A stretch of DNA of 64,000 bases from Blasia pusilla (GCA_050084515.1 CM114271.1:12958001-13022000); one strand, 5' to 3'. Positions 28,969 through 58,841 are shown, counted from the first letter of the stretch. Numbers and translations are program-made. Notes: generated by a model not told the origin, from the sequence alone.

Positions 28969-29589
28969 AACACCAATTTTGGCATTTCTGGTGAATTAAC
29001 ACATTTATGGGTTTTCGACTTTCTTGAAGTCATGCTTACAAGTAAAATAAGGACTTAAGTCCATTTACATATGACCATGTATTCAAGTTCTTTTGCAACC
29101 AATCAAGTCTCTTTTAGTCGCCGACAGCCTATATAGTATGATCTTGAAGTTAATGTTGAGAATGATGTTAATAATGTTTATTTTGTTTGTTTCTTTCGAC
29201 ATCTCGGGAGAGCGAAGGCTAGCGTGTGATGTGGTTAAAGTTTTCCTAAACATGTTAGAGCAATATTTGCAACAGAAAATAATTTATTTCGCGACTTTAC
29301 AGTAAAGGAGGTGGCAGACGATTGATTTTCGCCAAGGTTTGTGCGTTCGTCAGCCAAATCAAAGCTTAAGACCAAAGCATTCTCAAGTGAAGAAACAAAT
29401 AATCTTGGCCTCATGGACCCTCCGCCCCAACCCCACTTCTCCCCAGTCAGCAAGAATCTATAAAGTCTTGCTGCCGATATATCTACTACTTTCCGCTAAA
29501 GGAGTTGTTCGGGCTTTGGAATACATCCTACTGATATTTCTTCGGCATTTGGAACTATTGTTCCACTGGAAGGTTATTGAATGGCGTTT

Positions 29590-31125
29590 GGAACTCTAGT
29601 TCCAAATGAACTCAGAAGTATTTGGTTTCTACCGGTTGAGATAGACCTGAAATTGACAGCGCAATGTGATGGTTCGGCCCCGGAGAAGATTCCATTGAGT
29701 GCCAAGACAAAGCAATCGGAACTCTAGTTCCAAATGAGGATGGGGATTTCCCGTTACCGGATGCCTTCTATGGCCGGAATTGGATCTTAGGATCCAATTT
29801 GACTCAGACTAAACTTGGCTCCAAATGACGTTCAGTGGTGCGGTAATTTGGGACACAATCAGAATTGGGGTTCCGATTCTACACTTGTTGTCGACTTATT
29901 GGGATATAAGCAGCGGGTCATTCGGACCCACAGTTCCAATTGAAAATTGGGGTTAAATATTTCCGGATACCTTCTGGGGCAAGAATTGGATCTTCGATTC
30001 CAATTGGACAAACAGAATTTACCTTCTCATTCTACATTTGTTTCCGACCTATTGGGATGCAAGGAGCAGGCCATTTGGAACTACAGTTCCAATTGAGGAT
30101 GGGGATTTCTCTTTATCGGACACCTTCTATGGCCGGAATTGGATCTTAGGATCCAATTGGACTCAGACTAAGTTTGGCTCCAAATGACCTTCAATAGGCT
30201 CGACAGTTTGGGAGACAATTGGAACTAAGGTTCTGATTTTCCACTTGTTGCCAACCTATTGGGATACAAGGAGCAGGAAATTCGGATCTACAGTTCCAAT
30301 TGAGGATGGGGATTTCCCTTTACCAGACGCCTTTTGCGGCCGGAATTGGATCTAAGGATCCAATTAGACTTAGACTAAGTTTGGCAACAATTGACCTTCA
30401 GGGGACACGATAGTTTGGGATAGAATCAAAACTAAGATTCTGATTGTACACTTGTTGCCAACCTATTAGGGTGCAAGAAGCAGGCCATTCAAAACTGTAG
30501 TTCCAATCGAGGATGGGGATTTCCCTTTACCGGACGCCTTCTACGGCCAAAATTGGATCTTAGGATCCAATTGGACTTAGACTAAGTTTGGCTCCAAATG
30601 ACCTTCAACGAGCGCGACAATCTCGGACACAATTGGAACTAAGGTTCTGGTTCCCCACTTGTTGCCGACCTATTGGGATGCAAGGAGCAGGAAATTTGAA
30701 ACTACAGTTCCAGTCAAGGATGGGGATTTTCCTTTATCAGATGCCTTCTGCGGCCGGAATTGGATCTTAGTATCCAATTGGACGCAGACTGAGTTTGGCT
30801 CCGAATGACCTTCAGAGGGCACGGTAGTTTGGGACAGAATCAGAACTAAGATTTTGATTGTACACTTGTTGCCGACCTATTGGGACGCAAGGAGGAAACC
30901 ATTCAGAACTACAGTTCCAATCAAGGATGGGGATTTCCCTTTACCGGACACCTTGTGCAGCCGGAATTGGATCTTAGGATCCAATTAGACTAAGTCCAAG
31001 TTTGGCTCCAAATAACTTTGAGCGAGCACGGAAGTTTTGGACACAATCATAACCAAAGTTTTGATTCTATAATTTTTCCCGACGAAGGGATCTCAAGAGC
31101 AGGCTTAATGGAACTATAGTTCCAA
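29590..31125. repeat. Tandem array 1: 207-bp unit, ~7 copies, three 14-bp quasi-palindromes per unit
   Basis: The anchor (G/A)AGGATGGGGATTT recurs at 29736, 30095, 30302, 30509, 30716 and 30923. Units contain GGAACTACAGTTCC, AATTGGATCTTAGGATCCAATT and GGAACTAAGGTTCT. Confidence 0.95.
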
Positions 31126-31761
31126 TTCATCTAGAGGATGGCAACGTTGAGGATGCAAGCTCTACAATAAGAAACTGGACACACATATCATATAATAAGT
31201 CCATTGCACGATCATTAGATGATAGTTAATATGATCATTGAATATATAAGATTTGGAACTCAAGTTCCAATTCGGGTTGATTAAAAAATATGCCTGACAA
31301 TCATATGGCTTCGCAGTCTTTAGATTCCACTTTCTGCAATATGTTACAGTTCTCGCAATCTTAGCTTCCATTCTCTACAATAGGTTATAATTCCAGTTGT
31401 ACATGACTACAAATATCAAGTACCAGAGAATTTACAAATGGTGACAATACATTTCCAATAAGAGGAGATTCTCATCCGTTGCTATATCTTTGACATTGAT
31501 GGGCTCAAACCTGGGCAACATACTTCTTGAATCCATCCACTTCAATATGGTACATTTCAGGTTCTATTTGCAAATGTACCCAATGGCATCAAAATAGAGT
31601 ATCATTTCAGCTACCTATTACCCTCAGTGAGGTCTCTTCGTGCTCAATCGCAAGAGTATCTCATCCGTGGAAAGGTTGGTAATCTCCTCCTCAATCTCAT
31701 GGATATACTTATTGAGTCTATTGGCGAAGTTACTCCAACTAAACCTTCCCTCCCTCGAAGT

Positions 31762-33324
31762 CTAAACAATCCTCGTGAAATCAATTTGGAGATCTTCCTT
31801 TAGGGACTGGTAGATAGCTTGGAACTTATCGTAAGTCTTCTTCTGATACTCCTTGTCCAAACTATGCAGGTCCATATCCCAATCCTTAGCCTTTGCGACA
31901 ATGTAGCGAAAAGACGATGCTTCAGTTCGTGTAGGCCATACTCGTGAAGGAAACAACGGGCAACTTCTTGCCCGATCATCATCAAGCACTTCAGGTGGTT
32001 TTTGGAGATCATTCCCTTCGATGGAATAGTCGAATACGTTATCCACCAAAGCAGATGCCTTGGAGTTGAAGAAGATTTGGTACACCTTCTTACATTCTTG
32101 GTCCAGGCGAGAACCTAGAGTATCTACAATGGTGATCGACTTGGCTACAACCCTTAGTACAAAGTGATGGCCATGCAGGGTGACGATAAACACCTTCTCG
32201 GTTCCATCGTGTTGCACCACTTCATTCCACACAATATCTATGCTCTCATCTAGCATGGCATCATAAGGGAAAACATCATAAATATAAGGGAGGGAGACAT
32301 AATCCACAAAGCTCATATTGGTGTTGATGTAGACACCAAATGACAGTCCACCCTTCTGACTCCACTTTGCTACGGACTCCACGTCTAAGAAGCCGCTTTT
32401 ATCAATGACGTCCTTAAAACCAGACTGATTATCCCACTTCGCATACAAGCAAGCCCCCAACTTCACGATGCCATCGAGAACTCTAGCTGGGAGATATTTT
32501 TCTGTCGGATACTCCAAACACCACCTGGCAGTAAGGAAGGCATTGATACTACATGTTGAACTCGCAACTTCCACTAAATTCTGATCCACGCCGTCGAAGA
32601 TGACATTTGCAATGATCTCTAGTCTTGGATATTTCTTGCATACAGTCCGAGTCAAATGTCGAGGTAAAATTTGGAATAAGACCGAGGCCTTTAGCTTTTC
32701 CTGGATTGCATGGAGAAGACGTTTGCCATTACTGCCACTAGATTGTGGCTTTGGAAAACCAATCTGCCTAGTACTAATAAAATGACTAACACTCATCTCA
32801 TCTAGGAAACTCTCTTTCATTATCAGAAGGTAAGAGAGAAGAGTACCGGCCTCGCAATGATTTTTTTCGTCTCGAGATCTTGGAAGTTTATTAAATTTCG
32901 GAAGGGTTATAATGCTATTTGGATCATTCAAAAGGAGGGAATTAATTCCAATGTCCACCAGGACTGTATTCTTTGGGCAACAGAAGTTTCCAAACTCTCT
33001 AACAGCGTAAAAGAACGGCAGATCTTTCACATACTTCAAGAGATCCTTTGTCCCCTTTTGAACAGAGCAGTCCCGCACAAACCAAAAACATTTGGCCTTT
33101 TTTACGAAATATTCAGACAAATAGCAAGAATTTGCTAGCATCTCAAGCATTTCAAGCGCATCTTCCCTATTCATCATGGTCCAGAACCCATAATCATATT
33201 CTCTCTCTATCATTTCAATTAGTATTCTGATGTAGGGGGGGACAAATACATCCCGCCCATCTCTCGACATGAAGGCATTGTTTCCCCTAAGGCCGAGGGG
33301 ATACGATTTGCTAACCCTGTCCAT
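31762..33324 (-). CDS. 520-aa ORF: FCP1/NIF-like HAD domain + herpes-tegument-like (VTD/C76-type) cysteine protease domain
   Basis: N-part VFVPPY..YGFWT..DC..KDL..NTVLVD..NDPNSIITLPKF, preceded in frame (across one TGA) by PLLILKIDG. C-part SSTC258SINA..VLDGIVKLGACLY..FIVTLHGH386HFVL..IVD401TLG..LQIDF. Confidence 0.7.
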   Translation of the reverse strand: MDRVSKSYPLGLRGNNAFMSRDGRDVFVPPYIRILIEMIEREYDYGFWTMMNREDALEMLEMLANSCYLSEYFVKKAKCFWFVRDCSVQKGTKDLLKYVKDLPFFYAVREFGNFCCPKNTVLVDIGINSLLLNDPNSIITLPKFNKLPRSRDEKNHCEAGTLLSYLLIMKESFLDEMSVSHFISTRQIGFPKPQSSGSNGKRLLHAIQEKLKASVLFQILPRHLTRTVCKKYPRLEIIANVIFDGVDQNLVEVASSTCSINAFLTARWCLEYPTEKYLPARVLDGIVKLGACLYAKWDNQSGFKDVIDKSGFLDVESVAKWSQKGGLSFGVYINTNMSFVDYVSLPYIYDVFPYDAMLDESIDIVWNEVVQHDGTEKVFIVTLHGHHFVLRVVAKSITIVDTLGSRLDQECKKVYQIFFNSKASALVDNVFDYSIEGNDLQKPPEVLDDDRARSCPLFPSRVWPTRTEASSFRYIVAKAKDWDMDLHSLDKEYQKKTYDKFQAIYQSLKEDLQIDFTRIV

Positions 33325-33640
33325 AATTCAGAAAATATTTCCGTCAATTTTGAGGATAAGAAGAGGCCTAAGGGATTTCACCTATCCACCAACCAATGCA
33401 AGATATTAGCCTCTCAAAGAGGGAATTAGAACTATAGTTCCATCAGGAAATATTCATTCACTGAACTATCACAGTGCTAGGTTGGTGTCCAACATTTTGA
33501 CTTGCATCAGGCTCCTTTGGTTCATAGTAGTGTCGGTAATCACCAGGCTACGTGAAACACTTCAGTATTAGGAATAATCCCAAATTTACAAGTGTAAGAT
33601 TGGCTAAAACTGGTTCACAATGGGTAAAAATTCACATTAC

Positions 33641-34224
33641 CTTCTTCCAATAAGAGGGCAAATCGCATTGTCGGATGAACTCCCATGGAGTGTGGAAGTG
33701 GCCATTGAATATGTTGAGCCACAGAAGTTTGACATAATGTGTCAAAATTCTTATGAGAAAACTATCTTTTGAAGATGATGCCTTATATTTCGGCACCTTC
33801 ACAAAATATTGTACACTATCGTGGTGGTTCTCGTTTCCGACCATGTCCAAAAAAAAATCTGTTGCTGGCTGTCCAAATCCAGCCAACTTCTTGTTGCCTT
33901 GTCAAAATAGTTTAGCAGTTTGAATGGAGCCGCTTGACCTCCACACGGATTGTCATTTGTACCAACCAAATTGAACCCAACCGGGGGAACATTCCTCTCT
34001 TGTAAATGATTCAAAATTGCAGCCTCCATTTTGGCCAGACTATCTTCATTCTTACATGTTCACATGCCCAAAGCAAAGTAATCACTAGCTGCGTGGAGAA
34101 AATATCCATACCCTCGTATGATGCTAATACTTTCCAAGTTGCCAGAGTTTTGATAAGCAAGGCCGAATAGCAGGACCTCGTGCGGTTCAAAAAGCAGCAT
34201 GATTTTACCAGATCTCGGTCGAGT
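33641..34224 (-). pseudogene. Exon encoding a second degenerate FCP1/NIF-like domain
   Basis: Acceptor ATGTAG then TRPRSGKIMLLFEPHEVLL..IIRGYGYFLHAASDYFALGM*TCK..(frameshift in T-run)..FLDMVG..FVKVPKY..DSFLIRILTHYVKLL..WKK, donor GTAATG. Confidence 0.55.
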
Positions 34225-35384
34225 CTACATCAAACATTTCTTTCATCAAAATCCAAAGAATCATACAGAAATACAAAGGCGATGCAAGGTTGTAGGAGAA
34301 AATGAAACACAACATGAAAATAGAAGTCCTCAACTCTCAGACTGGTAACATTACATTAACTACTATACCTCTCGTGTGCTGAAGGGATGCACGGGAAAAA
34401 CCCTTATACTTCATAATACAATTGAAAGAAGGTAGTCACAGGGGAATGAATGGGAATTGAAGTTATGATTAAGATATGAATGAAAATGATTGTCACTTCA
34501 AGCTCCCCTACGTGCTAAAATCCAAAGATCTAATTTCCCTACTCATTTCCCTAATGGTATCCAAAGAGGTTCTATCCTCCATGCTCGACTTTATGGAACC
34601 ACCACCCGCTAGTTATCTCAACTCTCTTTCGGCATGATCAAAGTCTATGTGAAACCCTTGATAGTAAAGATGCCGATTGAGTCTTACCAAGGACGAGGTC
34701 CCTTGGTCGATGTTGGTCTGTTGGCCAGTACTATGTGGAGATGTTCCATGTGCTGGGGATGGATTATTATGCTTATTTTTCTTTGAAGGTTTCACGGCTA
34801 TAATTTTCGGAGATGCGTCCGAACCGCTAAAGTCTCCAAATTTTGTTGATACTCTTCTACGTAGGATCCGTTTCATTTTTTTTTATCGGTCCATATTTCC
34901 TAGAGAAGCCTTCAGTGCAATGACTCTATATGTCCTAGATATGTTAGTGTTGGTTCTCCCTTCATATTGTGGCCTAGCAACTTTCTTCGGCAATGTACTT
35001 CTTGCCGAAGCCGTAGGCTTTGTAGGCACTAGAGCTCGAGGTGGAACTTGAGACCCATCGTTTTTATGTGCATTTACACATTTGATTGTTAAATTGTGTC
35101 TAGAGTCGTCAGAATCCAATATTTCGAGTGCAATGGCTAAGTCAGTCCCGAGGATAGTATTTCCTACTTTTCTAAGTTGCAAGTCACCAAGCACTGAACA
35201 CTCAAACGTCAACCTACTACGCGTTCCACCGTGTGACTCCTGTATGAAACCACGATATGAGGTCTTCTTTTCTGAATTCAAAGTGTGGAGACCCTAAACA
35301 CAACGAGAACTTTAGATGAGTTAATCACTACTTTAGTTGCTCACATGATTCAGAGAAGCCGGTGACGTTGCAATGAGCTTTTTC

Positions 35385-35860
35385 GTACCCTCGAGTCCCT
35401 CAATCCCCTTTTCTCCCTGTGGAGTCTGCTTTTCCACTCCCTCGTTCTCCTCGTCTCCTTGTATAGTGGCAAAATGTTTGACATAATGAGAACTTAAGTT
35501 CTACATCAGTGCAAGAGGAGGTAGGAAAACTGAAAACATAATATGAAATATTAATTGGGTTGCTCACCTCAGAAGGAGATTCCGATGACAGTGGAGTCTA
35601 CTTTTCCATCCCAAGCAATCCCTCTCTCTGCTCTTCTCCCTGTGTAGTGGCAAAATGCTCCACATAATGAGAATTTAAGTTCAGCATTAGTGCAAGAAGA
35701 AGTTGGGAAACAGAAATCAGTATAGGAAAAAATAATTGAGTCGCTCACCGGAGTAGGAAAGTCCGATGACGTCAGAATCTACTTTCCCATCCCACATAGT
35801 CCCTCCCTTTCATTTTCTCCATGTGGATACTCAACGTAATGAGAAAAAAACTGTTAATTC
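35385..35860 (-). repeat. Tandem duplication of a ~180-bp exon+intron unit (2.5-3 copies)
   Basis: TAGTGGCAAAATG..ACATAATGAGAA..AGTGCAAGA..GCTCACC recurs at ~35455-35568 and ~35636-35749; short purine-rich minus-strand exons end in GTGAGC donors. Confidence 0.75.
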
Positions 35861-38800
35861 GAAACTAATACCGGGAAGGATTTGCATGCATTAGGAGGAT
35901 CATAGAGGATCATGTAAATTTCTTACCGTAGTTGGTGTTTTCGATGATGGCGTCTGCTTGGATCAACTCTCCAGCACTTCGTCCTCCTTCTTTCCCTCGG
36001 GAATGAGCATCGATAGTCCAAATGATTTTCCACCAATCAACGATGACAGCTTCGCAAACGGATACTTAGATTATCGTCCCACTCAAAAGCATAATTTTTT
36101 TTCATATCGAGCTTCCTAAATTGAACTTACAATATTTTCTCCCAACAGTGTGAGGATAGTTCTGGCGGAATATCTTGCCAAACCAGGAGTAGCTAGAGCA
36201 CTTGTATTCCTTTAAAAAATTGAGGGTTCAATACATCAAGAAATGTCACCCTTTCAAAAGTTGGGGGAGCCAATCCCTCACCCTCATCCCTCTCCGCGAC
36301 TCCATCGTCCTGAGCCATAGACCAACCAAAATCAATAATGGTCCTACTTGAGTCGAATAGGAGTGCAAAGAGAAACAAACGTCTGGCATGATTCAAGGCA
36401 CAAAATCCTGGAGCTTACTTCTGATTCGTAATCATCTTTTGACTCTACTTCCATGTCCGGGTCCTTTGCTCCTTTGCGATTCCGGGCATCTGCCTGTTTT
36501 TTGCCTTTGAAAGGTGCCACCTTCCAATCTGGTTAGGACTTCACTCTAGGGATAGTCCTTAGAAGACAACGGTTTGCATCAACCTTGAAGAATTGATCAA
36601 ATTTTAGACGAAAGTCCGACAATGTCACCCCATCCACTTGCGGACAGAATGCTTGGAAATTGATGCCCAAAACTTGTAACGATACCAGCTCAGGGAGTAA
36701 GTACATGTCTTTGAATAAAAACTTAAGCCAAATGCATGTTATCATGATCGGAACTTAGATTCCGAGAGAAATTCACCACTAGAGCCACCAGTACGCAGTG
36801 ACATGGATTTACCACAATGGAATTCTTCCGCACTCCCACCTTTGACAAGCCGGAGAAAATCTCCACGAGGTTACCCATTCGAAACTCGTTCTCTTCGAGG
36901 GTCGGAAGGAATCTATACTCCTCGTTGATCGTATCTCTTGTATCGAAGAGGGAGGCGGGAAGAACTTTTCCGCCAAGTACTCTGTTTACAGCAACAAGTT
37001 GTTCATCCAGAGTGGACTCATCAAAACTTTGCAAACCTGAAGGGCTACAAGGCTGGAGCACTACCACGTCCAAGATGCTACCACGTCTCAATCCTTACCA
37101 TGTTGGAAAGGCTACTACATTAGAAACGTTACTGCATCTGAACGGACCGTTTCAACATTTGAAGGGGTACTACGTTCAAACCATTAGGAGGTTAGGCTTC
37201 TCACGGCTTGCAATAAGATCTTGAGTCCATACTTGAATAAACATGGCAGATCATAATCTGTGTGGTTCCCACATGTAGATCTTAACATACTAACCCTTAC
37301 GTCCGTTATCCAAACGGCACGAGCCAATCCCTTTAATGAAAGTAAATACATTGTTAGGAAGAAACCCAAGCGTTAGAGGCCAAGTATTACGGCCTTTGAT
37401 GTTCCTCCTTCTCCTTGTCCCTCCACCATTATCTATTTTTTTAAGATGGGACTAAAGGAGACAAGTTTAGACTACAAACGCAGTAGATATATATGTAGAC
37501 CCGTGACCTAACTCCTCAAAAAGCATGGCTAGCTAGCTGCAAAATGCATTCACAACTTGAACGCAATAAGGCGGTTGTAGGCCTTAGTGCCGTAATTGCA
37601 CTGTGACAACCTCACTCGAATCATCCAAAGCTCCTGCTCAGTTCCGATTCTTAGTTACTCTTAACCAACCGAAGCTGGCTTCCGTCAGTCTAGAATACTT
37701 AAGAATTGGAACTATAGATCTAGTTAAACAAAAAAAAATTGAATCCAATTCCCTAAACCAATTTTTTCCGTCCTCCATTCAGAACTAAAACGCTGTCGTG
37801 GCAAGAGTCTTTCTTCGAGTAAGGGCAGGCCTTCTAGCTGCGGCAGACGCGGTCGATGCAAGATGAACTCTCTGAGAAGATCTCTTTTTTCAATATAAAA
37901 TTATTATGTGTACTCTCCATTCTCTCACGACACGTATCACAAATGGAAGTGCTGAGGCGATCACTTCTTCGTAATATCGGACCCCAAAATTCCTAACTAT
38001 AAAATCCCTATAAACTATTTTATGCTTGTGTACGAGGAAGATAGCACAACTAGTGTTAAATACCACTTGAGCAGGCCTATTGACGTCTATGGATCGTTAT
38101 ATAAGGACATACAAAGTACAATCCCATGTCCTTCTATATGTGATGATAGGAAGGATCACCGGAGTTGGAGATTGAATGACCTGGTTCATGAACGCCTCCC
38201 CAAAGTGATAAACTAAATAGCGAGTGAACCAGTGCCTATCTACAAAGAGTATCTTGATATGGTATGGATTAAGGAAAGGAAAGTCGGGCACAACTCGTGC
38301 TCCACCCCTATCCATGCTTTACAGACATTCTCTACTCTCCTCAAGAATGGGTTTTGGCGGAGTTATTCTCTCAAGAGGGGTAATCCACTCTCATTGGGGA
38401 AGTAACAAGCCAAAACATTCACTATTTTAGTATGACTAAACTCCTCTAAGGTGACAAACCTCTCATCTCCACACACACACCACACTCTAGAAACCTCTCA
38501 AAGAATAGACCATGGTCAAGTTACTCTCCCAAGAGGGGTGATCCACTCTCATTGGAAGAGCAAGCAATCACAAAACCATACACTCAAGAGTGACACGAAA
38601 GACTCAAGATGTAGAATAGAAGGTGATGAATCCTTGAAGGTTCTCCTCTTTATATTCTCACAAGAGATCAAGAGTACAAAATAGAGCTAATCTTATCTTG
38701 TGCCACATGGATTGGCTAAGCCTTGAGAATTAGAACTTTGGATCCAATTCCAGAAATGCAAACTCATTCCAACCCAATTAGCAAATGAAACTCTAGTTCC

Positions 38801-39149
38801 AAAAGAACAAGTTGGCTTTGGTCGGTCGGGAGTACAAAAGAATCGGAACTACAGATCTAGTTAAACAAGCAATAACTGAATCCAATTCCCTAAATTTTTG
38901 TAACTCTACATGTAGGGTGTGAATCGGAAGTGTATTTGCAAACCCTAAAATCTAAACACTAACATGCACAATACTTCTAGAAATGATAGAACGACCAAAA
39001 TACCTTGACGAAAGGCACTAAGGAATCTAGCTCTACATGATATCTCCTGCCCCACAATAAAAGCCATACATTCAATTGCACTAAAAGTATGTATCTAGGC
39101 TTAGTTTGATAGCTTTAAATCCATAAATGAATGGATACCTAAACCCGTG

Positions 39150-42946: not shown

Positions 42947-43025
42947 TTGGAATCCTATATAATCCTAGCTCATTCCCTTAGAATGGTTTTCTAATGGAGT
43001 GAGCGAGGATTATATAGGATTCCAA
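42947..43025. repeat. 79-nt near-perfect inverted repeat (hairpin)
   Basis: TTGGAATCCTATATAATCCTAGCTCATTCCCTTAGAA / TTCTAATGGAGTGAGCGAGGATTATATAGGATTCCAA; 37-bp arms with 3 mismatches. Confidence 0.92.
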
Positions 43026-43060
43026 CCCAACCTCACAAGCCTAATCTCCCAACGTCCTTT

Positions 43061-48777: not shown

Positions 48778-49053
48778 TAAACCCTAAATCCTAGGGGACT
48801 AGTAAGCCTAAAGCCTACAACCTAAATACTAAGCCCTAGCCAAAAAATTCTATAACCCTTTCTTGAAGCCTAGACATGAAACAATAAACCCTAAACCCTA
48901 AAACATAAGCCATAAACCACAAAGCCTAGGCCAAAATCCCTAACCTTGAGCTATAGATCCCTAAGCCAAAAACTCAAGACACTAGGCCAAAAACCCTTAA
49001 CCTTAACCCCTAAGCAAAAAACCCTAAACCCTAGAACCTAATCAATAAACCCT
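48778..49053 (+). repeat. Degenerate plant telomere-like (CCCTAAA)n array, left part
   Basis: Repeated AAACCCTAAACCCTA variants. Confidence 0.9.
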
Positions 49054-51131
49054 TGTCACATCTTTTAGGATAGATCTGTGAGATCTAATAGAGCACGTTC
49101 GCGAGTAGTGGAGGAGAGACTCAAGAGGTTGAGGATGACCTACTAAGGCCCCGGGAAACCTGAGAGAACACGTTTCCTCTTCATTTCGGCTCATTTGGAG
49201 CCATATTGAGGAACTTAGTGTTTTTAGGTAAGTACCATTTTGAGTATATGATCAACTTTCTATTTGTGCTTAGTGGCTGTTGACCTCTTACATCAGGTCA
49301 AGAGCCAAGGAGGTGAGTTGGGAGCATAGGTTACCATGGAGAGAGCTTGGGAGATGGGAGGGGTATACCTCAAGGAGAGAGAGGTTGAGAGCTCATTCTT
49401 TCTTTGTTGAATCTCTAGGCACAAGGCGGAAAACTATGGTCCCTTGCCCTGTGAGTGTAATCCAAGCCTCTCATTAGGAGAGTGGGTTTGGTTTGACATT
49501 GAGAAAGACATGTGAGAGTGCACATATGTGAGAACTATGGTGTTGTGAGAGAGATTGGATCTTATTTTACAAAGAGAGAATAAGTGAGTGAGAAAGCTTC
49601 ATGAGGGAGCTCGCTAGTTGCTTGATGTTTTGTGCAGGTTGGGGGACCGTGTTCCCCACTTCATGGCTCATGGGAGTGCTCACTAGAACAAGAGTAGTGC
49701 GAGTTTACTGTTTTGATTTTTTGTATGGGAGAGTGGCACGCGGAAGCGCTGCCTAATTTTCAATAGGAATTGAGTATCGGGGTGGATTTCTCCATGCCAA
49801 TGCTCTCCAGAACACCATGAAGCTTGCTGATTTGTGTTCTCATAGGTTTTATTTTTCTTGGGAGAAATCAGTGCGGAAGCGTGGGAGAAAGAAACGTTGA
49901 GCTTTACGATAATCCCTGTCAGTTCTTACATGAATTTTTTATTCAAAATATTTTCTAATGCCAACGTAGATCGTGAAGCTGTGCACGCTATGCAACAAAC
50001 AGTGCGCAATTTGGAGTTGTGAGCAAAAAGTTATGGTCAATCTTGCAAAGCTTCCATTGCTAGGCGATTTTTAGGGTTAAATTGCTTAAACCCTAAACCA
50101 GCCGCCGCGCCGGCGGTTGCTGTCACCGTCATAGTCACCGTCAATGGTCCGCCATCAATGGTCAACCGTCACCGTCAATGGTCCATAATCCACCGTCCAC
50201 CGTTGGCCGCCGCCGCGTAGCGCTGCTCAGAGCCGCGTTTGGTTGTTGTCCACCCTTGGTTGCCATTGCCGCCATTACGGAGTGGAGGGTCTTCTACGAC
50301 GACCGTTGATTCTCTTATTTGCACCGCCACCATATACTTTGGTTTGGCCGCCACCGTCATTGCAATTTCGTCATCAACCAATAATAGCAGGTGATCTCGG
50401 CTTATGGTGTTTGATTTTTCATCATGTTGCTATGTTGTGATTGGTAGCCGCTCGACGACGATCGAGTATTGTGCCGTGACGCCCGTAGACGCAATGCACC
50501 TCTGATTGCCATGTCGTGCCGCTTGTGGTCATATCGCATTGTCTCGATCACGAAGCCGCTCCTTCACTAAGGAGCAGAGCGTGTGAATTGCTGATTGAGG
50601 AGGGTATGCCGCCGAGTGCCGCACCCCATTCTTGAGTGCCGTGTTGTTTGTAGTTGTTTCGTGCCGCCAGTGTCGTACCGGACCGTTGAACCTGCACCGC
50701 ACATCGAGGAGGTTTGAGCAACGTCACTACGAGAGGAGTAAGACTTACTGATTGGAGGAGTTGTCTTCACGACCAAGTTAGGGTCAAGATTTGCAGTTGC
50801 CGAGTTTGGGTCGGATATTTGCAGTTGTTAGGTTACCCATTCTGGTCTATTACCCTACACGTGTGAGGGATTTCCAGGTATTGGGAAGTTATTTGGGATA
50901 CTGCGTTTCGTGCTGGTGCTAGGAGCATCGATGATGCATGGGTTTAGAGGACATAGACCTATGTGGGATGTCCACAGTTGAGGATGGTTTGTTGATGAGA
51001 CGATAGATCAATTGATTTGCCGCACCACGCTTCTTGTTGTCGCACAACACACGTCTCAGTGAGAGAATGTAGGTTGAGTGCCGCATGTTTAGTTTGAGTG
51101 ATTGAGGGATTACTTGCAAGATTGAGAGTGA

Positions 51132-52100
51132 TTGTGTGAGAGGGGCACGAGGGCCATCACGGCGTTCTTCCAGGATTTTGAGAGGCGAGGTAGTGAACCT
51201 GAGAGTAGCTCTGGAGGGTTTACCCGGAGTGGTGCGAGGTTTCGAGGGTCTCCACGTGGGAGACCACCTCGATCTCCTTTTGTGTCGTCTTCAGACGAGG
51301 GGCAGCATGTAGAGGAGTGTGTTAGTGATCCACCGTACACATTGAGTGGTCCCACCAGTTGGGCGTACGAGATGGACGATCGGGGTAGAGGACCGCATAG
51401 GTTTTCAAGTGTTGTAGGCACTATAGAGCTACACGACTTCATTGCGGAGTTTAGGAGTTGGTGTGACTCGTATCGGGCTAGAAACTCTAGAGAGTTCAAC
51501 CCAATTACAGCATGGAACGGTATGTTCCAGCATTTTAAGGGGGCGCCCATGGATGATTACCATGAGTTCTCCCACAGATATGCCCAGGAGATTGAGGCAT
51601 GGCAACTCTACTATGACCCACACTATGTGTCATGGACGGGGCTGTTCCCAGATGAGGAGGAGGAGTCAGGAGAGGCTACTTCCTCTTCCACTAGTGATGT
51701 TTTAGGAGGGGTCACTCGCACTCGAGTAGTTGCACCATCTAGTCGGGTTCGTCCCAAGTTCAACCTCGTGGTTGAGTTCTTTGTTGAGTTGAGGGCGAGC
51801 TACCAAGGGGTATGGATGGAGAAGTTGCAAAGCATCCACGACTTTCAGAGGCGCCCACGTGAGAGTTTGAGTGAGACTTACACTCGCTTGCGCCGGTTGA
51901 TCAATGTCACTCAGGTGGTGACAGAAACTCAAGCTATCCAGTCATGGTACGCGATGTTATATCGGACCATGCGGACACGGGTGCGGGAGGGGGTCATGGA
52001 CGTGTGCTTCAGTATGGAGGAGGAGATGGTGTTGCACTAGGAGGTTATCAGTGTCACTATTGTCAGAGGTATGGTCATTCACCCGCCATGTGTTTCAGTT
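51132..52100 (+). pseudogene. Gypsy gag
   Basis: 302-aa ORF with FQRRPRESLSETYTRLRRLI (retrotransposon gag-like), followed by the knuckle CHYCQRYGHSPAMC at ~52052-52093. Confidence 0.8.
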
Positions 52101-52989
52101 TACACCCTGAGTTACGTCCGGACCAAGGGCCACAGAGGGCACCAGAGCAAGTAGTCGGTTCGGGTGGGCCTAGAGATTGTGCACCAGGTGGTCTCGTTGG
52201 GGGACAAAGAGCTGGAGTTGCCCAACAGGGTGGTGAAGCTGCCCGTGGAGGAGGTAGAGTCCCACCACCTAGACGCGTCGAGGGAGATGTCGGGCGTGAG
52301 GTTGGGATGGCTGCTCAGATACAACAGCTACAACAGCTATAGGAGCAGATTGCCGTTATGGCATTGAGGTTACCCGATGTCCGATCTGTGACATCGACAT
52401 CATATAGAGCAGCCAGAGATATTGAGGATTCTGCTTGGATGTGCGGGGTTGCCCAAATGGAGGCCGCCGCAATTATGATGCGTGGAGCAACCGCAGAGTT
52501 GGATCCACAGCGAGGGGAAGCCAAGAAACAGGCTAGGCTTCCTCAATCTTTCACGTTGTCCGAGGAGATGAGGACCCCATTGATGGGTCTTGATCAAAGT
52601 TCCCGAAGAGTTGGTGATGTTATTGGTGTGAAGGCACGGAGGCCAATGGGAGAAACAAGTGCGAAGACTCTTATTTTAAATGCTTTGGAGTAGCATGTGT
52701 TGAGTACGATGTTGGGAGCGGCCACGATGGTGTACCGTGCTCCGCTGTTTTCTGCTTCCAATGTTATGACATTGGGAGGTATGCCTGCCGAGGTGTTTTG
52801 GCTGGCCGCTACACTATGTGAGCATGGAGTTGATGTTCTTGCATCACGTTCAGAAGTGATTGCAGAGGAGGTGATGGACATACCCTTGGAGCACATGCTC
52901 GGGCCATGCACGTCAGATTCATGGCAAGTTGCGATTGATGGCGGAGATGTAGGCTAGACCCATGATAGAGCATGCCATAGCTTCTCTTG

Positions 52990-53400
52990 GTGTTGTGTTG
53001 CTGGATAACCGGGGAGAGGTCTTCTAGTTGGTGAGTCTAGAAGGTAGAGCTTTTAGTTTGCAGTGCGTCTTGTTGGATTCAAGAGCGCAACCCCTGATGT
53101 TGGGGAAAGCGTCATTCAGAGGATTGGGCTTGACGAGAGCCAATATGGAGCGTTGTCCATTCCGGATATAGACATCCTTGGATGGAGCGAGTACCACACA
53201 GTATATCACCCAACAAAAGCTCGTGGTGAGGATTCGCTTGGGACATCCTACACATGAGTCTGTGGTGCGAGCCAAGGCGATAGTGACTAATGAAGAGTCC
53301 TACGACGTCTTGGTTGGTGGAGCAGTGTTATATCCGATGGGGTTTTGCCTGGATTACTGGGAGGAGTCAACGTCCTCTAGACCAGGATGGCATTCAGATG
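52990..53400 (+). pseudogene. Gypsy aspartic protease
   Basis: LLDSRAQPLMLG (degenerate DSG) ..YDVLVGGAVLYPMGF. Confidence 0.75.
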
Positions 53401-53680
53401 ATGAGCACTATAGCTCATTACTCGTTCGATTCACAAGTGTAGTGATCGAGCAACAGCCAAGAGAGATGACGACCTTAGCAACATTTAGCAGTGCCATGAC
53501 TTGGCCTATTGATTTGATTGAGGGACATATCCATGCAGAGGATACTCCCATTCTTGACATGTCTAAGGAGAGGAGTATTATGGTAACCGCATCATTCCCT
53601 GGAGGAGAGGTGCTGCTGTGGGGCTAGAGTTAGGAGCTTCGTTGTTTATCTGATGAGCATGTGCAGACAGTGTGGAACAA

Positions 53681-54530
53681 TACCTACACGTTGAGATTGA
53701 TAATGTTGCGGGGAGCACTTCACTTTACCATATGGCGCACTTACACCTCTATTTTCCCGACTTGTTGTCTCCGTCCGCCATTCAAGGTTACCAGAGTTCC
53801 CTACCGAGGGACATTTCATTGTTGGGGGCGTAGGACTTGGAGCAGGTAGGGCCCATACACGTGGTCATTGCTGGTCGGCCATGTTAGGGCCAATCAAGTG
53901 CTAGACGAGGTAGCAAATTAGCTGACTCTCGGTCTAGGTTGTTTTGGGAGATGATGCGGATCTTGCGAGCATCAGTCTCGTCCTCCAACATACATACTGG
54001 AGAATGTACCAATTTTGAGCGATTCAAGATTCCGTGTAGTGACGAGTGCACATCAGGTGCATGGATGGATCAGCCCGGAAGTTTTGTTGGATGCGGCGCG
54101 TGTGGGTTCACGAGCACATCGTCCGCGTCCTTGGTGGACCATCTTGGTACCACACGAGGTGTTGCGGAGGGCATATGCAAGAGTGGAGTGCCCCTCCGAT
54201 TTGTTGGTGGATTCTATTCTAGATCCAGGTCGTCAATCATAGGTAGTGAGGCACGATGACCCACCGCCGTTGATTGTGGTCAACAGAATTGGCATGCCAC
54301 GGGCAGCCTTTCCCACATTTGTGAGTTTTCCTGCTTCCTTTACATACAAGGAAGCCAAACTTGGCTTGGTTTGGGATGACCAGGTATAGAGATTAGTGGA
54401 GCCCAACGTCGATGAACGAGACCAAGCGATGGGATTTCCCACAGGAGTGACGGCAGAACCGTCACTATTAGAGGCATCATGACATCATGTCTCAAGTAAG
54501 GCGATGGACCTGAATTGCTTCACATGGATT
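53681..54530 (+). pseudogene. DNMT3-like C5 cytosine methyltransferase domain inside pol
   Basis: YLHVEID..A (II), LPRDI (III), VVIAGRPC*GQS..LADSRSRLFWE (IV/V, Cys at 53882-53884), YILENV (VI, ENV at 54000-54008), DAA..GSRAHRPRPWWT (VIII), EPNVDERDQAMGFPTGVT (IX), KAMDL (X). Motif I absent. Confidence 0.9.
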
Positions 54531-54869
54531 TTTAGTTTAGCAATAGCTGAGCAGCATCGTTGGAGGATGTGACATATCACAGTTGTTGAGTTGGTGAGCC
54601 CCATGCCTACCAAGACGGTTGGGGCAGTGGCTCATGGCGAGACTTGAGGAGATCGACACACCAGGGATGATCGAGAGAGACATCCTTGGACTTCTTGGGA
54701 TAATTTGCAGGTACGCCAGGAGATGATAGCCACAACATTGAGCATGGTTCCGAGTACTACACGTGGAGATGAGAGTTCTATTGTCCGAGACGGGGTTGCA
54801 CCATAGCAACTACCGACATCCGCACCGGAGAGTCCTACCGTAGTCACAATAGAGACTTGGGAGCCAGAT

Positions 54870-56280
54870 ATGGGCCCTAAGTTGACAAGAGGAGAGCAGC
54901 ACTAGATACACCAGTTACTTAGGAGTTATAGGAGTTGTTTTGCATTTAGTATGCATGATTTGGGTACGCTGAAGGGTCCATGGATCCGCATTGAGTTGTC
55001 GAGTTACACGATGATCTTCCGACGACCCTAGAGGTAGAGGGATATGGAGAGGGCTCTGATTCAGAGTAGGAGCCGAGACTTGGTTGACATAGGACTAGTG
55101 GAGATGTCACATGGAGAGTATGCATCTGCCACTTTCATGCCCGCCAAGAAGGATGTGCATGGCAACTGGACGGATAGGCGGATGTTGAAGATTACCGACT
55201 TATCAATCAGGAGACAAAGTCCGATAGGTATGCCATGCCCACTCTTGAGGAGATCTTTGATGGTATTGGGCATGCAAAGGTCTTCAGTTTATTAGATCTT
55301 TGAGCCGGATACCATCTACTGCCTATCAGATTGGAGGACAGGCAGAAGACTACATTGGGGACATCGATCCCCACGGGAAGGATTGCTTGTACCAGTGGCG
55401 GTTCTTATTATTTGGGTTAAAGAACGCCCCGGCTGAGTTTCAGAGGGTCATGGATAGGAACTTGGCAGGTCAGATTTTGCTAGGTGTTATATTGATGATA
55501 TCGTAGTCTTAAGCGCCACAGTTGAGGAGCATGAGTGACATCTAAAGGAGGTGTTTCGACGATTGCATTTACATGGGCTGAAGCTACATCCAGGCAAGTG
55601 CAAGTTCTTCTACAACCTGGTTGAGTACCCCAGTCATACGATATACCCAAGGGGTCTTGGTGTGCAGCAGAAGAAGGTAGAGGCTATTTCACGCATTCCG
55701 CGCCCTACAGATGTGAGTCGAGTTCGTGCATTCATTGGATTGGCGAACTTCTATCGACGATACGTCAAGGATTTTATCTCGATTGCAAAGCCGCTGACCT
55801 TGGTGACAAAGGTGGATCAAGAGTGGCACTGGGGGGATGAGCAGGAGAGAGCATTTTAGATGCTCAATGATAGATTGACATCCGCGCCCATATTCATGAG
55901 ACCAATCAGGGGGCGTCCTTTCTAGTTGCATACCAATTGGAGCATGTTGGGGCTTGGAGCCGTACTCACCCAGCATGATAATGATGGTAGAGAGTTCATG
56001 GTGGCTTACGCTAGTTGCTCGAACAACACTGCAAAGGCGAAGTATAGGTCGTATGAGGGTGAGTGCTTGGCTGCAGTGTGGGCTGTCGCACATTTTAGAT
56101 GTTATCTATTCGGCAATCCCTTTACCATCATTATTGATCATCAGTCACTTAAGTGGTTGATGGAGTCCGACAAACTTACAACGAAGCTTGCAAGGTGGGC
56201 TCTTTTGTTGCAAGAGTATGACTTCTAGGTGGTGCATAGACCTGGGACGCTCAACCAGGATGCAGATGGTTTGAGCCATA
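54870..56280 (+). pseudogene. Gypsy reverse transcriptase and RNase H
   Basis: YASAT..KKD..RRM, DRYAMP, FSLLDL*AGYH, FGLKNAPAEFQRVMD, YIDDI, KCKF, VRAFIGLANFYRRYV, GLGAVLTQ, ECLAAVWAVAHFRCYL, IDHQSL, LARWAL, DADGLS. Confidence 0.95.
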
Positions 56281-56659
56281 ACCCATGCCCGAGTCAGCGA
56301 GATATGATAGGAGCTCGTTGGCATGGTGAGAGTGAGGAGGAGTTGGTGTCATGTTGTCATGCGTCAGCCTATTTGGGCTTGTTGGGTATGGAGAGCCAGA
56401 TTTCTGAGACTTCGATGGCGAAATCTGATGGAGAGTCCTTAGATCCACAGCCCGATGAGGACACGATAGTTGGCCGAGACATTCATGATGATAGAGTGGT
56501 CTTGGAGTACCTGCGTACGAGTAGCGTTGCAAACACAGTGGATGCTAGAGAGCAGGATCGGATCCTACAGCGAGCCATACAGTTCTGGTGGGAGGGGACA
56601 CATATGTTGGGAGTGTGGGAGGATGGTAGAGTGCGTGTAGTGCCTCATCCTTTGTAGAG

Positions 56660-57730
56660 AGCACGTTTGGTACGTCATACCCATGAGGAGTTGGGCCATT
56701 TTGGAGTGAAGCAGAGGTACAACTTGCTCTAGATTTCAGTATTGGTGGCGAGGCATGCAGACTGACGTTCAGCAATTTGTTGTTAGATGCATGGTTTGTG
56801 ATCGAGTCCGAGCATCGTTCAATGCTCCGACTCCACGGTTGCATCCACTTCCGATCATGGGTTTAGGTTATAGATGGAGTTTGCATTTTGCAAGACCTTC
56901 TCCTTTGACAGAGCACCATAGTCATTATGTGTTGGTGATGATCGAGCACTTCTCGACGTGGATAGAGTTGGTTTCATTGCCTAAAAAAGCAAGTGAGGGA
57001 GTAGCGTATGCCTTCCTAGATCGAGTTTGAGTCATTACGGCGCACCAGCTGAGGTGTTGACAGATCTAGGTACATAGTTCCGAGGGGAGTTTCAGGCCTT
57101 GTGTGATCAGGCACTGATCGACCACCGCACTACTTCGCGAGATCATCTTGAGGCAGATGGACTAGAGGAGCAGGTTGTGCAGACGCTGAAGAGAGGACTA
57201 CGCAAGTATGGCTTGCAGAGAGGTCACCTAGGAGATTGGGACCTTTAGTTTCCGTGGTTGGCGATTGGATACAGATTCAGCAGGCAAGCATCCTTAGCGT
57301 CTTTCTCACCGTTCTTGCTTTTGTATGGCCCAGAGCCAGATTTACCTGCGGCGATTCGTCGAGATGTTGATGAGGTGTTGAACCTTGATGACCTTGATGT
57401 ATGGATGCAAGCATGTTCTTAGAGGGCTGAATTTTTTCGGAGAGTGATGCCCATGGTGTTTGAGAACTTGGCGATTACACAGCATCAGGATACATTGAGG
57501 TATGCGATTATTCAGGGGGGTGGTTATCGACCTACTATCCAGACGTTCCATCAGAGAGATTATGTCTGCTTGCAGTAGACGGCATCCACGACGTTGGATG
57601 TGACTGCAGGGCGCACCATCTTGAGAGTGCGTGAGGTTTTGCCATCAGGTTTTCTCTTATTGGAGGGATGCGATGGTATGGTTTGGAAGGACCATGTGCG
57701 TAACTTTGCGCCGTGTCACCTTCCGAACAT
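56660..57730 (+). pseudogene. Gypsy integrase
   Basis: HEELGH..CMVC zinc domain, VLVMIEHFSTWIE, YGAPAEVLTD..F, EADGLEEQVVQTLK, SPFLLLYG. Confidence 0.92.
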
Positions 57731-57779
57731 TGACGATATAGTTGATCGGAGCTTAGCACTAGTTCCTACATGCTTGCGA

Positions 57780-57914
57780 TGTATATTGTGCGGTTCCGCC
57801 CATGGTGCAGCCACTATGCTAGTCTATGATGGATGTTTGAGAGGATGCCATATGGCATGCTTGACGCCACCTCTCACTAGGGTTCCTCAGGGACAACGGA
57901 TGTGTCCCAAATGT
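57780..57914 (+). other. PHD finger at the integrase C-terminus
   Basis: CILC..MLVYDGCLRGCHMACLTPPLTRVPQGQRMCPKC: C4HC3 spacing with the third Cys changed to Tyr and the conserved Trp to Arg, both single transitions. Confidence 0.9.
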
Positions 57915-58208
57915 ACATTGGGTAGGTAGTTCTACATTCTGACGTGTGTCTATGACATGGATGACAAGAAAGTGACTAACGATGGGGCCACATGAGTACC
58001 CGGCCTTCTTGCTCTTAGTGTCCGAGAAATGTATGTCATGGTAGATAGGGATACATGGCTATCTGGAATTAGAGGGACCTAACCACCAGCTAAGGGGGCA
58101 ATTGGAGATATTTCGGTACTTCTTGTCTTGTTGTTTGGATCATGCTTGTTTGTGTGTGTATTTGGTGACAGCGATGTGTGTTTTATAGCGATGTGTATGC
58201 GCACGACA

Positions 58209-58710
58209 TCCTAAACCCTAGGCAAAAAACCCTAAACCCTAACCCCTAAGCAATAAACCCTAAATTCTAGGAAAAAAACCTTGAAACCTAACCCCTAAGC
58301 CAAAAACCCTAAAGCCTAAGACAACACCCTTAAACCCTAACTCCTACAAGAAAAACCCTAAATCCTAGGCCAACAACCCTATACCCTAATCCTTAAACAA
58401 AAAATCCTAAATCCTAAGCCAAAAACCCTAAACCCTAACCGCTTAGACAAAAACCCTTGGCCAAAAATCCTTAACCCTAAGCCAAACACCCTAAACCCTA
58501 GAACTTAAGCAATTAACCCTAAACCTTAAACCCTAGGCCAAAAACTCTATACCGTAGCCCCTAGGCCAAAATCCCTAAGCCCTACGCAAAAAGCTATAAA
58601 CCCTAAGCCAAACACCCTTAACCCTAGAACCTTAGCAATAAACCCTAAACCCTACAATGTAAGCCAAAAACCTAAACCCTAAACCCTAGGCCCTAAGCCC
58701 TAAACCCTAA
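58209..58710 (+). repeat. Degenerate plant telomere-like (CCCTAAA)n array, right part
   Basis: Repeated AAACCCTAAACCCTAGGCCAAAA-type units, continuing the array interrupted at 49053. Confidence 0.93.
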
Positions 58711-58841
58711 GGCATAAACATGGTTGACAAAGAGGGTAAAACCTAAGTTGTACTCCCATTACTCTATGTCCTACTATGCTAAAAATCATAGTAGAATAGA
58801 ACTGGGTTTTCTAAAACATCACATTTTTCGAAATCGGTGTT

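Follow-up and report, generated by a model that had tools for sequence, protein, structure and literature searches.

The Sola superfamily of DNA transposons is said to go back to Bao and colleagues in 2009. The accessible part of one description (PMC10741241) defines it by a DDD transposase and a 4-bp target site duplication (TSD), reports terminal inverted repeats (TIRs) of 11–1124 bp and typical sizes of 2–9 kb with some elements above 15 kb, and includes plants among the hosts. Sola1 is recorded from Physcomitrella in the accessible part of PMC9033089, and Sola from mosses, ferns and Capsicum; curated bivalve Sola1 elements have a mean size of 5.4 kb (PMC10294476). Majorek 2014 merely names Sola, within clade E. 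In a survey of 1007 plant genomes that screened only elements of 2–12 kb, Ginger and Sola together account for 9 of 3203 active clusters (PMC12973397). A second point of comparison is the large plant CACTA (En/Spm) element, exemplified in the accessible part of PMC8978399 by a 16.5-kb quinoa element with internal arrays and a second open reading frame (ORF).

The window analysed here is a stretch of 64,000 nucleotides of Blasia pusilla DNA. It contains an insert of 29,873 bp (28969–58841). With a probability of about three in four, this is a single copy, old and dead, from a multi-copy family of large TIR DNA transposons that move by cut-and-paste and encode a DUF7869 transposase. Like Sola, the element has a DDD transposase, a 4-bp TSD, short TIRs (13 bp, in the 11–1124-bp range) and a plant host; unlike typical Sola elements of 2–9 kb, it measures ~19.8 kb. 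Palindrome arrays, a telomere-like subterminal array and a 521-codon second ORF are not mentioned for Sola in the literature examined.

Table 1. Features of the insert and its immediate borders, in window coordinates.
Feature	Position	Strand	Remarks
Left TSD copy, GAGG	28965–28968		in Copia RNase H codons HE/D; direct reading
Left TIR, AACACCAATTTTG	28969–28981	+	direct reading; AACAC..ATTT.. common with relatives' TIRs, 9/13
Left subterminal array	29551–31268		153/207-bp units with palindrome GGAACTNNAGTTCC
Second ORF, P0001	31762–33327	-	stop-to-stop length 521 codons; ATG at 33324
Tandem duplication, 181 bp	35438–35794		2 copies; 35569–35948 skipped by some contigs
Fragment of unrelated high-copy repeat	37794–38710		nested, foreign to native element; loose read ends at both borders
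Central array	38787–42312		~152-bp units with palindrome GGAACTNNAGTTCC; length differs among copies (read-contig joints)
Segment 75% identical to 26095–26514, outside element	43056–43477		TIRs looked for, none found
Third array, short	43658–44540		palindrome GGAACTNNAGTTCC; directly upstream of transposase
Transposase pseudogene, DUF7869 family, DD41D core	45246–48161	+	single frame; 17 stops, 8 in 46632–47070
Telomere-like array, left part	48760–49053		CCCTAAA-type, 21/28/49-bp higher order
Ty3/Gypsy-type remnant, TG...CA ends	49054–58208	+	nested; RT_RNaseH, Integrase_H2C2 and PHD matches
Telomere-like array, right part	58209–58722		
Right TIR, CGAAATCGGTGTT	58829–58841	-	reverse complement AACACCGATTTCG; GTGTT end, as in relatives
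Right TSD copy, GAGG	58842–58845		direct reading

Insertion site and transposase

Insertion took place in a Copia RNase H gene and left a 4-bp duplication, GAGG. Direct sequence reading places the interruption at IVIHE/DNESCIAIA: the Copia pol frame stops after ...IVIHE at 28967 and restarts as DNESCIAIAKNLAHNGRTKHFDIQHHF... at 58845, and both halves are in frame after removal of the insert and one 4-bp repeat. The 13-bp TIRs are identical at 11 positions, and the two mismatches (CpG>CpA and CpG>TpG) are consistent with CpG decay; the ancestral TIR is AACACCGATTTCG. A fifth base (A) beyond GAGG repeats too, so a 5-bp TSD is a possible reading; the 4-bp reading alone yields symmetric TIRs. At one fixed pair of places, a TIR of at least 11/13 together with a 4-bp repeat has a chance probability of ~4e-8. 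Further exact TIR copies were not found elsewhere in the window, and Rfam and tRNA scans of 28–60 kb gave no matches. The original prediction, made from the sequence of the window, had given exact ends from the split RNase H, 13-bp TIRs with two CpG-type mismatches and a perfect TSD; these readings hold, the last with the 5-bp alternative just given.

The same prediction placed one DDD transposase inside the insert, and here too the analysis agrees. When 58 long homologues were compared with the window by tblastn, 70 of 70 matched segments fell inside 45432–47816, which indicates a single transposase locus. Pfam DUF7869 (PF25273) matches at 47073–47390 with 84 bits against a curated cut-off of 26 (E 1.3e-23). 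Homologues number 1358 library proteins at E<=1e-3 (top identity 58%); they are named 'uncharacterized' or 'hypothetical', apart from one Branchiostoma protein called 'ATP binding'. DUF7869 is present in all 40 aligned homologues, and only one of them carries a further Pfam family. Word-based homologue searches with P0003, the core piece and P0001 returned nothing, which is weak evidence only.

In the transposase family the DDD core is RNase H-like, and 41 residues separate its second and third Asp. Across the 40 homologues Q351, D353, N354, G388–H391 and D395 are invariant, and an IIDGMDQ block lies upstream of D353 and D395. The window copy retains MDN and GHTHKVVD; in the first catalytic Asp block it has HKKMD where the family has IIDGMD. 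Over residues ~133–427, a structure model of the family (pLDDT 77) matches the Mos1 catalytic domain best (Z 9.5, rmsd 3.0, 161 residues aligned), with retroviral integrases next at Z 9.3 to 8. In a Foldseek search, no PDB structure matched the model at E<=0.001.

Relatives and superfamily placement

Relatives were collected from metagenome contigs, where 596 pattern stretches gave 352 confirmed cases and 80 retained loci. The right-end 20-mer ...AAATATGTGTT (<=4 mismatches) occurs in 24 of the 80, with 20 distinct flanks; in these loci the element ends ...GTGTT about as far downstream of the transposase core as in the window. This distance is 2.3 kb in the window after removal of 49054–58208, against 1.75–2.6 kb in relatives with both coordinates read. 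Because related transposases sit in AACAC...GTGTT elements, in equal orientation and at a similar distance from the right end, the termini of the insert belong with its internal transposase.

One relative, L042, is a complete element of 11,273 bp (681–11953 of its contig) with TIRs identical at 19 of 20 positions, starting AACAC, and the TSD ATAT. All 21 of its TGGTGGCCACCA palindromes lie within the element (expected 0.03), in subterminal and central arrays. A second TIR pair among the relatives, in L021 (5125–9418), has no TSD, and the 4-bp TSD is supported by only two cases, the window and the independent L042. Like the window element, such relatives encode a DUF7869 transposase close to their right end and on the same strand, and they have AACAC...GTGTT termini, a 4-bp TSD and tandem palindrome arrays in subterminal and central positions. 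They differ in transposase core (~50% identity; 51–52% for the top four loci and 43% for L042), in using another palindrome, in having no homologue of P0001 and in being about half as long.

The family presents what the Sola descriptions name: a DDD triad in an RNase H-like transposase (D353, D395 and the upstream IIDGMDQ, on a Mos1/integrase fold), 4-bp TSDs, and TIRs, of 13 bp here and 20 bp in L042. Judged by these described features, the element is on balance probably what repeat libraries name Sola. The earlier label, Sola-like, is overstated in that it draws only on the DDD core and the 4-bp TSD, the family's sole Pfam label being DUF7869.

That sole family label is absent from the literature searched, under either DUF7869 or PF25273. 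Together with the fold matches to Mos1 and integrases, and with the 41-residue D–D spacing, which resembles that of some Tc1/mariner groups, it would suit a DUF7869 lineage outside Sola: Academ, Chapaev/CMC, Ginger2 or Transib (3–5-bp TSDs), or an unnamed DDD lineage near Tc1/mariner and the integrases. Such a placement is rather unlikely, as the TSD is GAGG or ATAT and not TA, Pfam searches for rve, Transposase_21, RAG1, XPG and helicase domains gave no match in the window pieces or the 40 homologues, Sola is already known from mosses, ferns and Capsicum, and DDD with a 4-bp TSD is the published Sola definition in the accessible part of PMC10741241.

Individual superfamilies were compared in turn. 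Tc1/mariner transposases and retroviral integrases resemble the window family in fold and in the short spacing of the last two catalytic residues; Tc1/mariner was rejected, since it has a TA TSD and a DDE_3/Transposase_1 enzyme of ~350 residues, whereas here there is no such Pfam match, homologues are 700–1000 residues long, TSDs are non-TA and elements span 4–20 kb. In architecture, large plant CACTA elements resemble the window element: both have TIRs and subterminal repeat arrays, both combine the transposase with a second, functionally unassigned ORF, and both contain tandem or satellite arrays internally. CACTA/CMC was nevertheless rejected: in place of CACTA termini, a 3-bp TSD (2–4 within CMC) and a Transposase_21-type DDE enzyme, the window element has AACAC...GTGTT, a 4-bp TSD and no such Pfam match at E<=10 in the transposase pieces. 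Ginger, which combines an rve-type, integrase-like transposase with a 4-bp TSD, was rejected as well: no rve was found in the window pieces or the 40 homologues, and the likeness to integrases is at core level only. Academ, marked by a 3–4-bp TSD and a transposase accompanied by an XPG nuclease or helicase, was compared by description; no XPG or helicase Pfam match was found.

Copy number, nested pieces and native size

Read depth was taken from a WGS run of 1966 M letters over 28.8–48.8 kb in 30 bins. Summed depth is near-flat, at 25–86 (mean ~50) in 28 of the 30 bins. Only 118 of 16442 aligned reads are >=99% alike and 9187 are <90%; differences comprise 1279 C>T and 1236 G>A against 591 A>G and 580 T>C. 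Among the read alignments listed, none has a loose end at 28969. The flat depth fits an old multi-copy family whose copies combine left end, 521-codon ORF, arrays and transposase. Because these parts have approximately equal copy number, 28.97–48.77 kb was amplified as one unit.

Two foreign pieces are nested in the insert. The Gypsy-type remnant is 9,155 bp long; blastn with words of 11 and 7 found no LTR pair, and there is no clean TSD. The nested Gypsy proposed at the outset shows RT_RNaseH, integrase zinc and PHD matches and lacks these two structural marks. The high-copy repeat fragment at 37794–38710 has a read depth of ~590–1095 against ~50 elsewhere (10- to 20-fold), and RNA reads map to it; in the RNA run almost nothing falls outside this repeat. 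Because this 0.9-kb repeat is nested too, the native size is ~19.8 kb or less, and the ~20.7 kb first given is too large. The accompanying claim that the whole unit moved together is supported for the ~20 kb left of the Gypsy, at the smaller size. Flat depth would also be expected if foreign pieces had nested in an ancestor prior to amplification.

A pile of independent transposons, in which a small TIR element entered Copia and transposase, ORF and arrays then nested separately without any 20-kb unit moving, is improbable. Two nested pieces are indeed demonstrable, a 420-bp internal segment is present outside the element too, and P0001 and the telomere-like arrays are missing from most relatives. 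Separate arrivals are nonetheless at odds with a depth that is flat across left end, ORF, arrays and transposase and rises sharply in the foreign repeat. The termini match those around related transposases in orientation and distance, and L042 shows the same plan of subterminal and central palindrome arrays. An assembly chimera or rearrangement in place of an insertion, conceivable in that the window is one assembly, is very improbable given the in-frame rejoining of the Copia halves minus one 4-bp repeat, the inverted repeats flanking the break and the coverage of the left part by contigs from two other sequencing runs.

Second reading frame, repeat arrays and significance

The original prediction described P0001 as a multi-exon cargo gene. 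It is instead a single ORF; additional exons were looked for and not found, and its stop at 31762–31764 reads differently in 57 of 61 genomic reads. The N-terminal half has a weak NIF-phosphatase-like match (PF03031, E 4.4e-4 to 1.2e-3) under the curated cut-off; Pfam gave nothing else, including no Peptidase_C48, and the idea that the C-terminal half is a ULP-like protease was rejected as unsupported. Homologues were found neither in the 80 related loci nor among PDB sequences at E<=1, and the Atlas gave no usable match; a single-sequence structure model (pLDDT 32.8) is unusable. P0001 is best read as a lineage-specific second gene; capture from a host is not demonstrated.

Three palindrome arrays and telomere-like repeats, both foreseen earlier, are borne out by counts. 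Within the window GGAACTNNAGTTCC has 39 matches at <=1 mismatch, all in 29551–44540 (expected 0.22), and none in the right subterminal region. The two parts of the degenerate CCCTAAA-type array hold 18 of 24 AACCCTAA matches (expected 2.2); a AACCCTAA pair at 50071–50096 was rejected as a third part. Among 17 related loci checked, one (L061) has a telomere-like array.

The history of the locus can be outlined as follows. (i) The TIRs would have served as binding sites for the transposase, as would the short palindromes GGAACTnnAGTTCC, which stand in arrays in the subterminal region and upstream of the transposase gene. (ii) The transposase would have cut with a 4-bp stagger and mobilised the whole unit. 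(iii) The element probably then decayed through methyl-C transitions. (iv) Later it was apparently hit by the Gypsy-type element; with the fragment of high-copy repeat that it also carries, a native length of ~19.8 kb would be left.

An undescribed giant, gene-carrying family, as first proposed, is too strong a claim, since Sola elements >15 kb and plant Sola (accessible part of PMC10741241) and a 16.5-kb CACTA with arrays and a second ORF (accessible part of PMC8978399) are in print. The element belongs to a rarely studied group of transposons, in which it is large and unusually decorated; it is no new kind of element, and the locus leaves knowledge of transposon mechanism unchanged. Sola-type elements are the least characterised plant TIR transposons, and the locus supplies a large copy whose limits are fully and exactly placed. 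Its terminal signature, AACAC...GTGTT with a 4-bp TSD, is linked to Pfam DUF7869 and could give a domain of unknown function a role. The palindrome arrays are a candidate binding-site architecture that can be tested. More tentatively, plants may harbour a coherent uncharacterised lineage of 11–20 kb Sola-type elements, with AACAC...GTGTT termini, 4-bp TSDs and fast-evolving palindrome arrays as putative transposase-binding sites, to which the window family would have added a second gene (a NIF/HAD-like remnant, open over 521 codons despite the stops in the transposase) and a telomere-repeat-like subterminal array. Size-capped annotation can miss long DNA transposons; if such a lineage exists, pipelines with a 12-kb ceiling (PMC12973397) would systematically overlook its 11–20 kb elements.

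Termini of the insertion and nested sequences

The element (28969-58841) interrupts the RNase H frame of a decayed Copia pol. Junction reading and flank translation place the frame ...STEGEYAAATIVANKALWLEKAVGDYWIKQPYLIVIHE up to 28967 and its resumption, with DNESCIAIAKNLAHNGRTKHFDIQHHFLRKCVEKEEVELKYYPTKKMILTKPLAK, at 58845; the insert between the Copia halves is 29,873 bp long. [quoted passage not shown] The two TIR mismatches (CA/CG and TG/CG) show the pattern expected from methylated-CpG deamination, and AACACCGATTTCG, without mismatch, is the probable ancestral TIR. The base following GAGG is A on both sides, so that the TSD is readable as 5 bp, but the TIRs are symmetric only if it is taken as 4 bp. 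At one fixed pair of positions, at least 11/13 inverted matches together with four repeated bases would arise by chance with a probability of approximately 4e-8. No exact TIR copies occur elsewhere in the window, and matches with up to two mismatches are at chance level (nine versus 6.5 expected). In the host Copia, the 234 codons that precede the insertion contain three in-frame stops (28266-28967). Upstream of this stretch, 25.6-27.5 kb lacks coding sequence and has a high GC content, which implies a further interruption or truncation of the Copia. A GC-richer block at 10963-19015, probably a further LTR retrotransposon, has several plus-strand ORFs of 175-225 codons and, at 16985, a motif resembling a tRNA-Met-type primer-binding site.

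Features of the element, in window coordinates
Feature	Position	Strand	Remarks
TSD, GAGG direct repeat	28965-28968 and 58842-58845		
Left TIR	28969-28981		AACACCAATTTTG
Palindrome arrays, three tandem	29.55-31.27, 38.79-42.31 and 43.66-44.54 kb		carry GGAACTNNAGTTCC
P0001, second ORF	31762-33327	-	521 codons, ATG at 33324
Transposase	45246-48161	+	sole transposase locus in element
Telomere-like array	48760-49053 and 58209-58722		degenerate CCCTAAA-type, 21/28/49-bp higher order
Gypsy part	49054-58208	+	9,155 bp; TG start, CA end; splits telomere-like array
RT_RNaseH	55926-56228	+	in Gypsy part
Integrase_H2C2	56710-57030	+	in Gypsy part
PHD finger	57579-57929	+	E 1.5e-6; in Gypsy part, downstream of integrase zinc domain
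Right TIR	58829-58841		CGAAATCGGTGTT, reverse complement AACACCGATTTCG

Two foreign pieces are nested in the element. The one predicted to be a Gypsy insertion does carry Gypsy-type domains; a search for an LTR pair found none, and no clean TSD can be read from the flanks (ACCCT / TCCTA). The other had been missed. Genomic read depth reaches ~590 and 1095 in the bins covering 37440-38773, with sharp loose ends at 37794 and 38710, and an unrelated high-copy repeat fragment is therefore nested between these positions. Within the 20 kb, RNA reads reach appreciable numbers only here (depth 20-54 in run X14). A joint at 38710/38728 marks a small local inversion or a hairpin. A non-coding segment of ~420 bp, without TIRs, is shared at 75% identity between 26095-26514, upstream of the Copia RT, and 43056-43477, within the transposon; it represents either a piece strayed from another copy or a small repeat in its own right. 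Scans of 28-60 kb for Rfam families and tRNA genes found none.

The transposase and its cognate termini

Read in a single frame, the transposase comprises 972 codons with 17 stops; eight of these fall in 46632-47070, a segment with a shift of frame as well. The stretch 47073-47390 matches Pfam DUF7869 (E 1.3e-23). A full HMMER scan of 1.84 billion representatives returned 1358 proteins at E<=1e-3, the closest at 58% identity over 65 residues. When 58 long matches were compared back to the window by tblastn, the 70 resulting segments were all confined to 45432-47816. Across 40 aligned homologues, nine residues are invariant (Q351, D353, N354, K360, G388, H389, T390, H391 and D395), and the corresponding motifs are LQxDN..ENKN and VGHTHEDID. 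The first catalytic Asp is likely to be that of an upstream IIDGMDQxK block; the last two are separated by exactly 41 residues.

A structural model of one homologue (P0084) was built by AlphaFold with the 40-homologue alignment (pLDDT 77, pTM 0.73). Foldseek gave no match to this model at E<=0.001. An alignment-based structure search of 48,161 chains ranked the Mos1 catalytic domain first (Z 9.5, rmsd 3.0, 161 aligned), followed by retroviral and foamy-virus integrases, Metnase, TnsB, IstA and Sleeping Beauty at Z 9.3 to 7.4, values that are only moderately over the tool's background. All of these matches cover model residues ~133-427, spanning the three Asp: the first follows beta-1, the second beta-4, and the third is on the next helix. 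That the matches are consistently DDE/D enzymes and that the Asp residues occupy these places supports a DDD transposase with an RNase H-like core. The copy in the window retains MDN and GHTHKVVD, with HKKMD as the first block, and is a pseudogene.

Metagenome contigs were scanned with the transposase-core alignment: of 596 pattern stretches, 352 were confirmed and 80 loci kept. Downstream of the transposase, 24 of the 80 loci have the same 20-mer end ...AAATTAATTAAATATGTGTT (up to four mismatches), followed by 20 different flanks, which identifies these as true element ends. They terminate in GTGTT, as does the window's CGAAATCGGTGTT. One locus, L042 (assembled three times, also as L044 and L048), holds a complete element of 11,273 bp (681-11953) with TIRs AACACATATTTAATTAATTT and AACACATATTTAGTTAATTT (19/20) and ATAT on both sides as a 4-bp TSD. 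Two further loci (L067/L063) are the same insertion, with flanks 89% identical, and are not independent. A TIR pair at L021 (5125..9418) is not flanked by a TSD and speaks against a simple picture. The ancestral window TIR has AACAC..ATTT.. in common with that of the relatives (9/13). From transposase core to right end the distance is 1.75-2.6 kb in relatives with both coordinates read, and 2.3 kb in the window with 49054-58208 set aside. Together with the palindromes described below, these termini and distances tie the window termini to the internal transposase; by this sequence comparison, the window TIRs are shown to be cognate with the DDD transposase family. Two canonical right ends lie 4.7 kb apart at L080 (12262 and 16942), and the left TIR at L021 5125 abuts sequence internal to another copy. 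Family members may insert into or beside each other.

Arrays, putative second gene and amplification as a unit

The three predicted palindrome arrays are borne out: GGAACTNNAGTTCC has 39 matches in the window at no more than one mismatch, all within 29551-44540, versus 0.22 expected. An additional copy (33428-33441) lies ~100 bp upstream of the P0001 start. The L042 element contains 21 copies of a different short palindrome, TGGTGGCCACCA (<=1 mismatch, 0.03 expected); none lies outside the element (range 777-11652), and they are found close to its two ends and in tandem arrays at its centre. The comparison with relatives makes short-palindrome arrays a trait of the family as opposed to captured satellite DNA. 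Because they are confined to the element, are subterminal and promoter-proximal, and are paralleled in L042 by a different sequence, the palindromes (GGAACTnnAGTTCC) are putative transposase-binding sites. The predicted telomere-like repeats are also present, as a split, subterminal CCCTAAA-type array. Only one of 17 related loci checked has such an array, which argues that it is a lineage-specific addition; that locus (L061, 4910-5546) carries a degenerate version with a similar 21-bp unit, 65.5% identical over 328 bp to window 58210-58530.

The 'multi-exon' cargo gene of the original prediction proved to be the single ORF P0001, for which no further exons were found. Residues 27-153 align with positions 37-140 of 160 of a NIF/FCP1-type phosphatase profile below threshold (20.4 bits, cut-off 21.8). 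Beyond this match, no likeness was found in a word-based search, the Atlas, PDB sequences or a single-sequence fold. The profile start precedes the first residue of P0001, and the catalytic DxDxT motif of the family presumably sits there, ahead of the ORF. The stop codon is private to the copy in the window: of 61 genomic reads, 57 differ at 31763 (TAG -> TTG), leaving the frame open for 45 more codons. The ORF is stop-free over 1.57 kb, versus seven premature stops in ~2.5 kb of transposase outside 46.6-47.07 kb. This hints at past constraint, weakly because the terminal stop is a private mutation. P0001 had no tblastn match in the 80 related-transposase loci, which points to a lineage-specific addition, and it would represent a second gene of the element.

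Whole-genome reads labelled as the same species (1966 M letters) were compared with 28769-48768 at >=80% likeness, as were those of an RNA run and the contigs from two older runs. Summed depth is 25-86 (mean ~50) in 28 of the 30 bins, spanning left terminus, P0001, arrays and transposase. Within the left terminal 400 bp it is 43 (at 29252), so the terminal region has the same copy number as the interior. Of 16442 reads, 118 are at least 99% alike and 9187 below 90%; differences of the type C>T (1279) and G>A (1236) outnumber A>G (591) and T>C (580) roughly two to one. Depth, divergence and transition bias thus indicate a multi-copy, old family decayed by methyl-C transitions. As a rough estimate there are at least ~50 copy-equivalents, the 118 near-identical reads capping single-copy depth at ~0.9. 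Among the loose ends listed for reads over 28769-48768, none falls exactly at 28969. The ~20 kb was amplified as a unit. The original prediction put the native size at ~20.7 kb; the near-flat depth upholds the unit, and the size is reduced to at most ~19.8 kb (29,873 - 9,155 - 917).

Classification of the family

According to PMC10741241, Sola is defined by a DDD transposase and a 4-bp TSD, with TIRs of 11-1124 bp and sizes mostly of 2-9 kb, some above 15 kb; plant occurrences include Physcomitrella, and flowering plants are described as uncommon hosts. Other papers record Sola in Physcomitrella and Capsicum (PMC9033089; PMC7076952) and in Azolla (PMC6786969). The mean length of curated Sola1 elements from bivalves is 5.4 kb (PMC10294476). 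The window element combines the three Sola-defining features (DDD, 4-bp TSD and TIRs), and is probably Sola by published description rather than by Sola1/2/3 sequence affinity. CACTA, Tc1/mariner and Ginger each disagree with the element in termini, TSD or Pfam family. For Academ, whose transposase comes with an XPG nuclease or helicase, Pfam searches gave no match to either, and this group may still be a candidate. The closest well-described architecture is that of large plant CACTA elements, with TIRs, subterminal repeats, two ORFs and internal arrays; an example from quinoa measures 16.5 kb (PMC8978399).

The sequence shows an insertion with a 4-bp duplication, followed by decay and nesting. 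Movement would be by cut-and-paste, the target being cut with a 4-bp stagger. The original observation is sound and the element is real; the interpretation as a giant plant transposon family is right in kind, with its novelty overstated. The element represents a large family, itself new, within an established type of plant DNA transposon, probably Sola. The analysis also links DUF7869 to AACAC...GTGTT termini and 4-bp TSDs, and reveals a palindrome-array architecture common to the window element and its 11-kb relatives.
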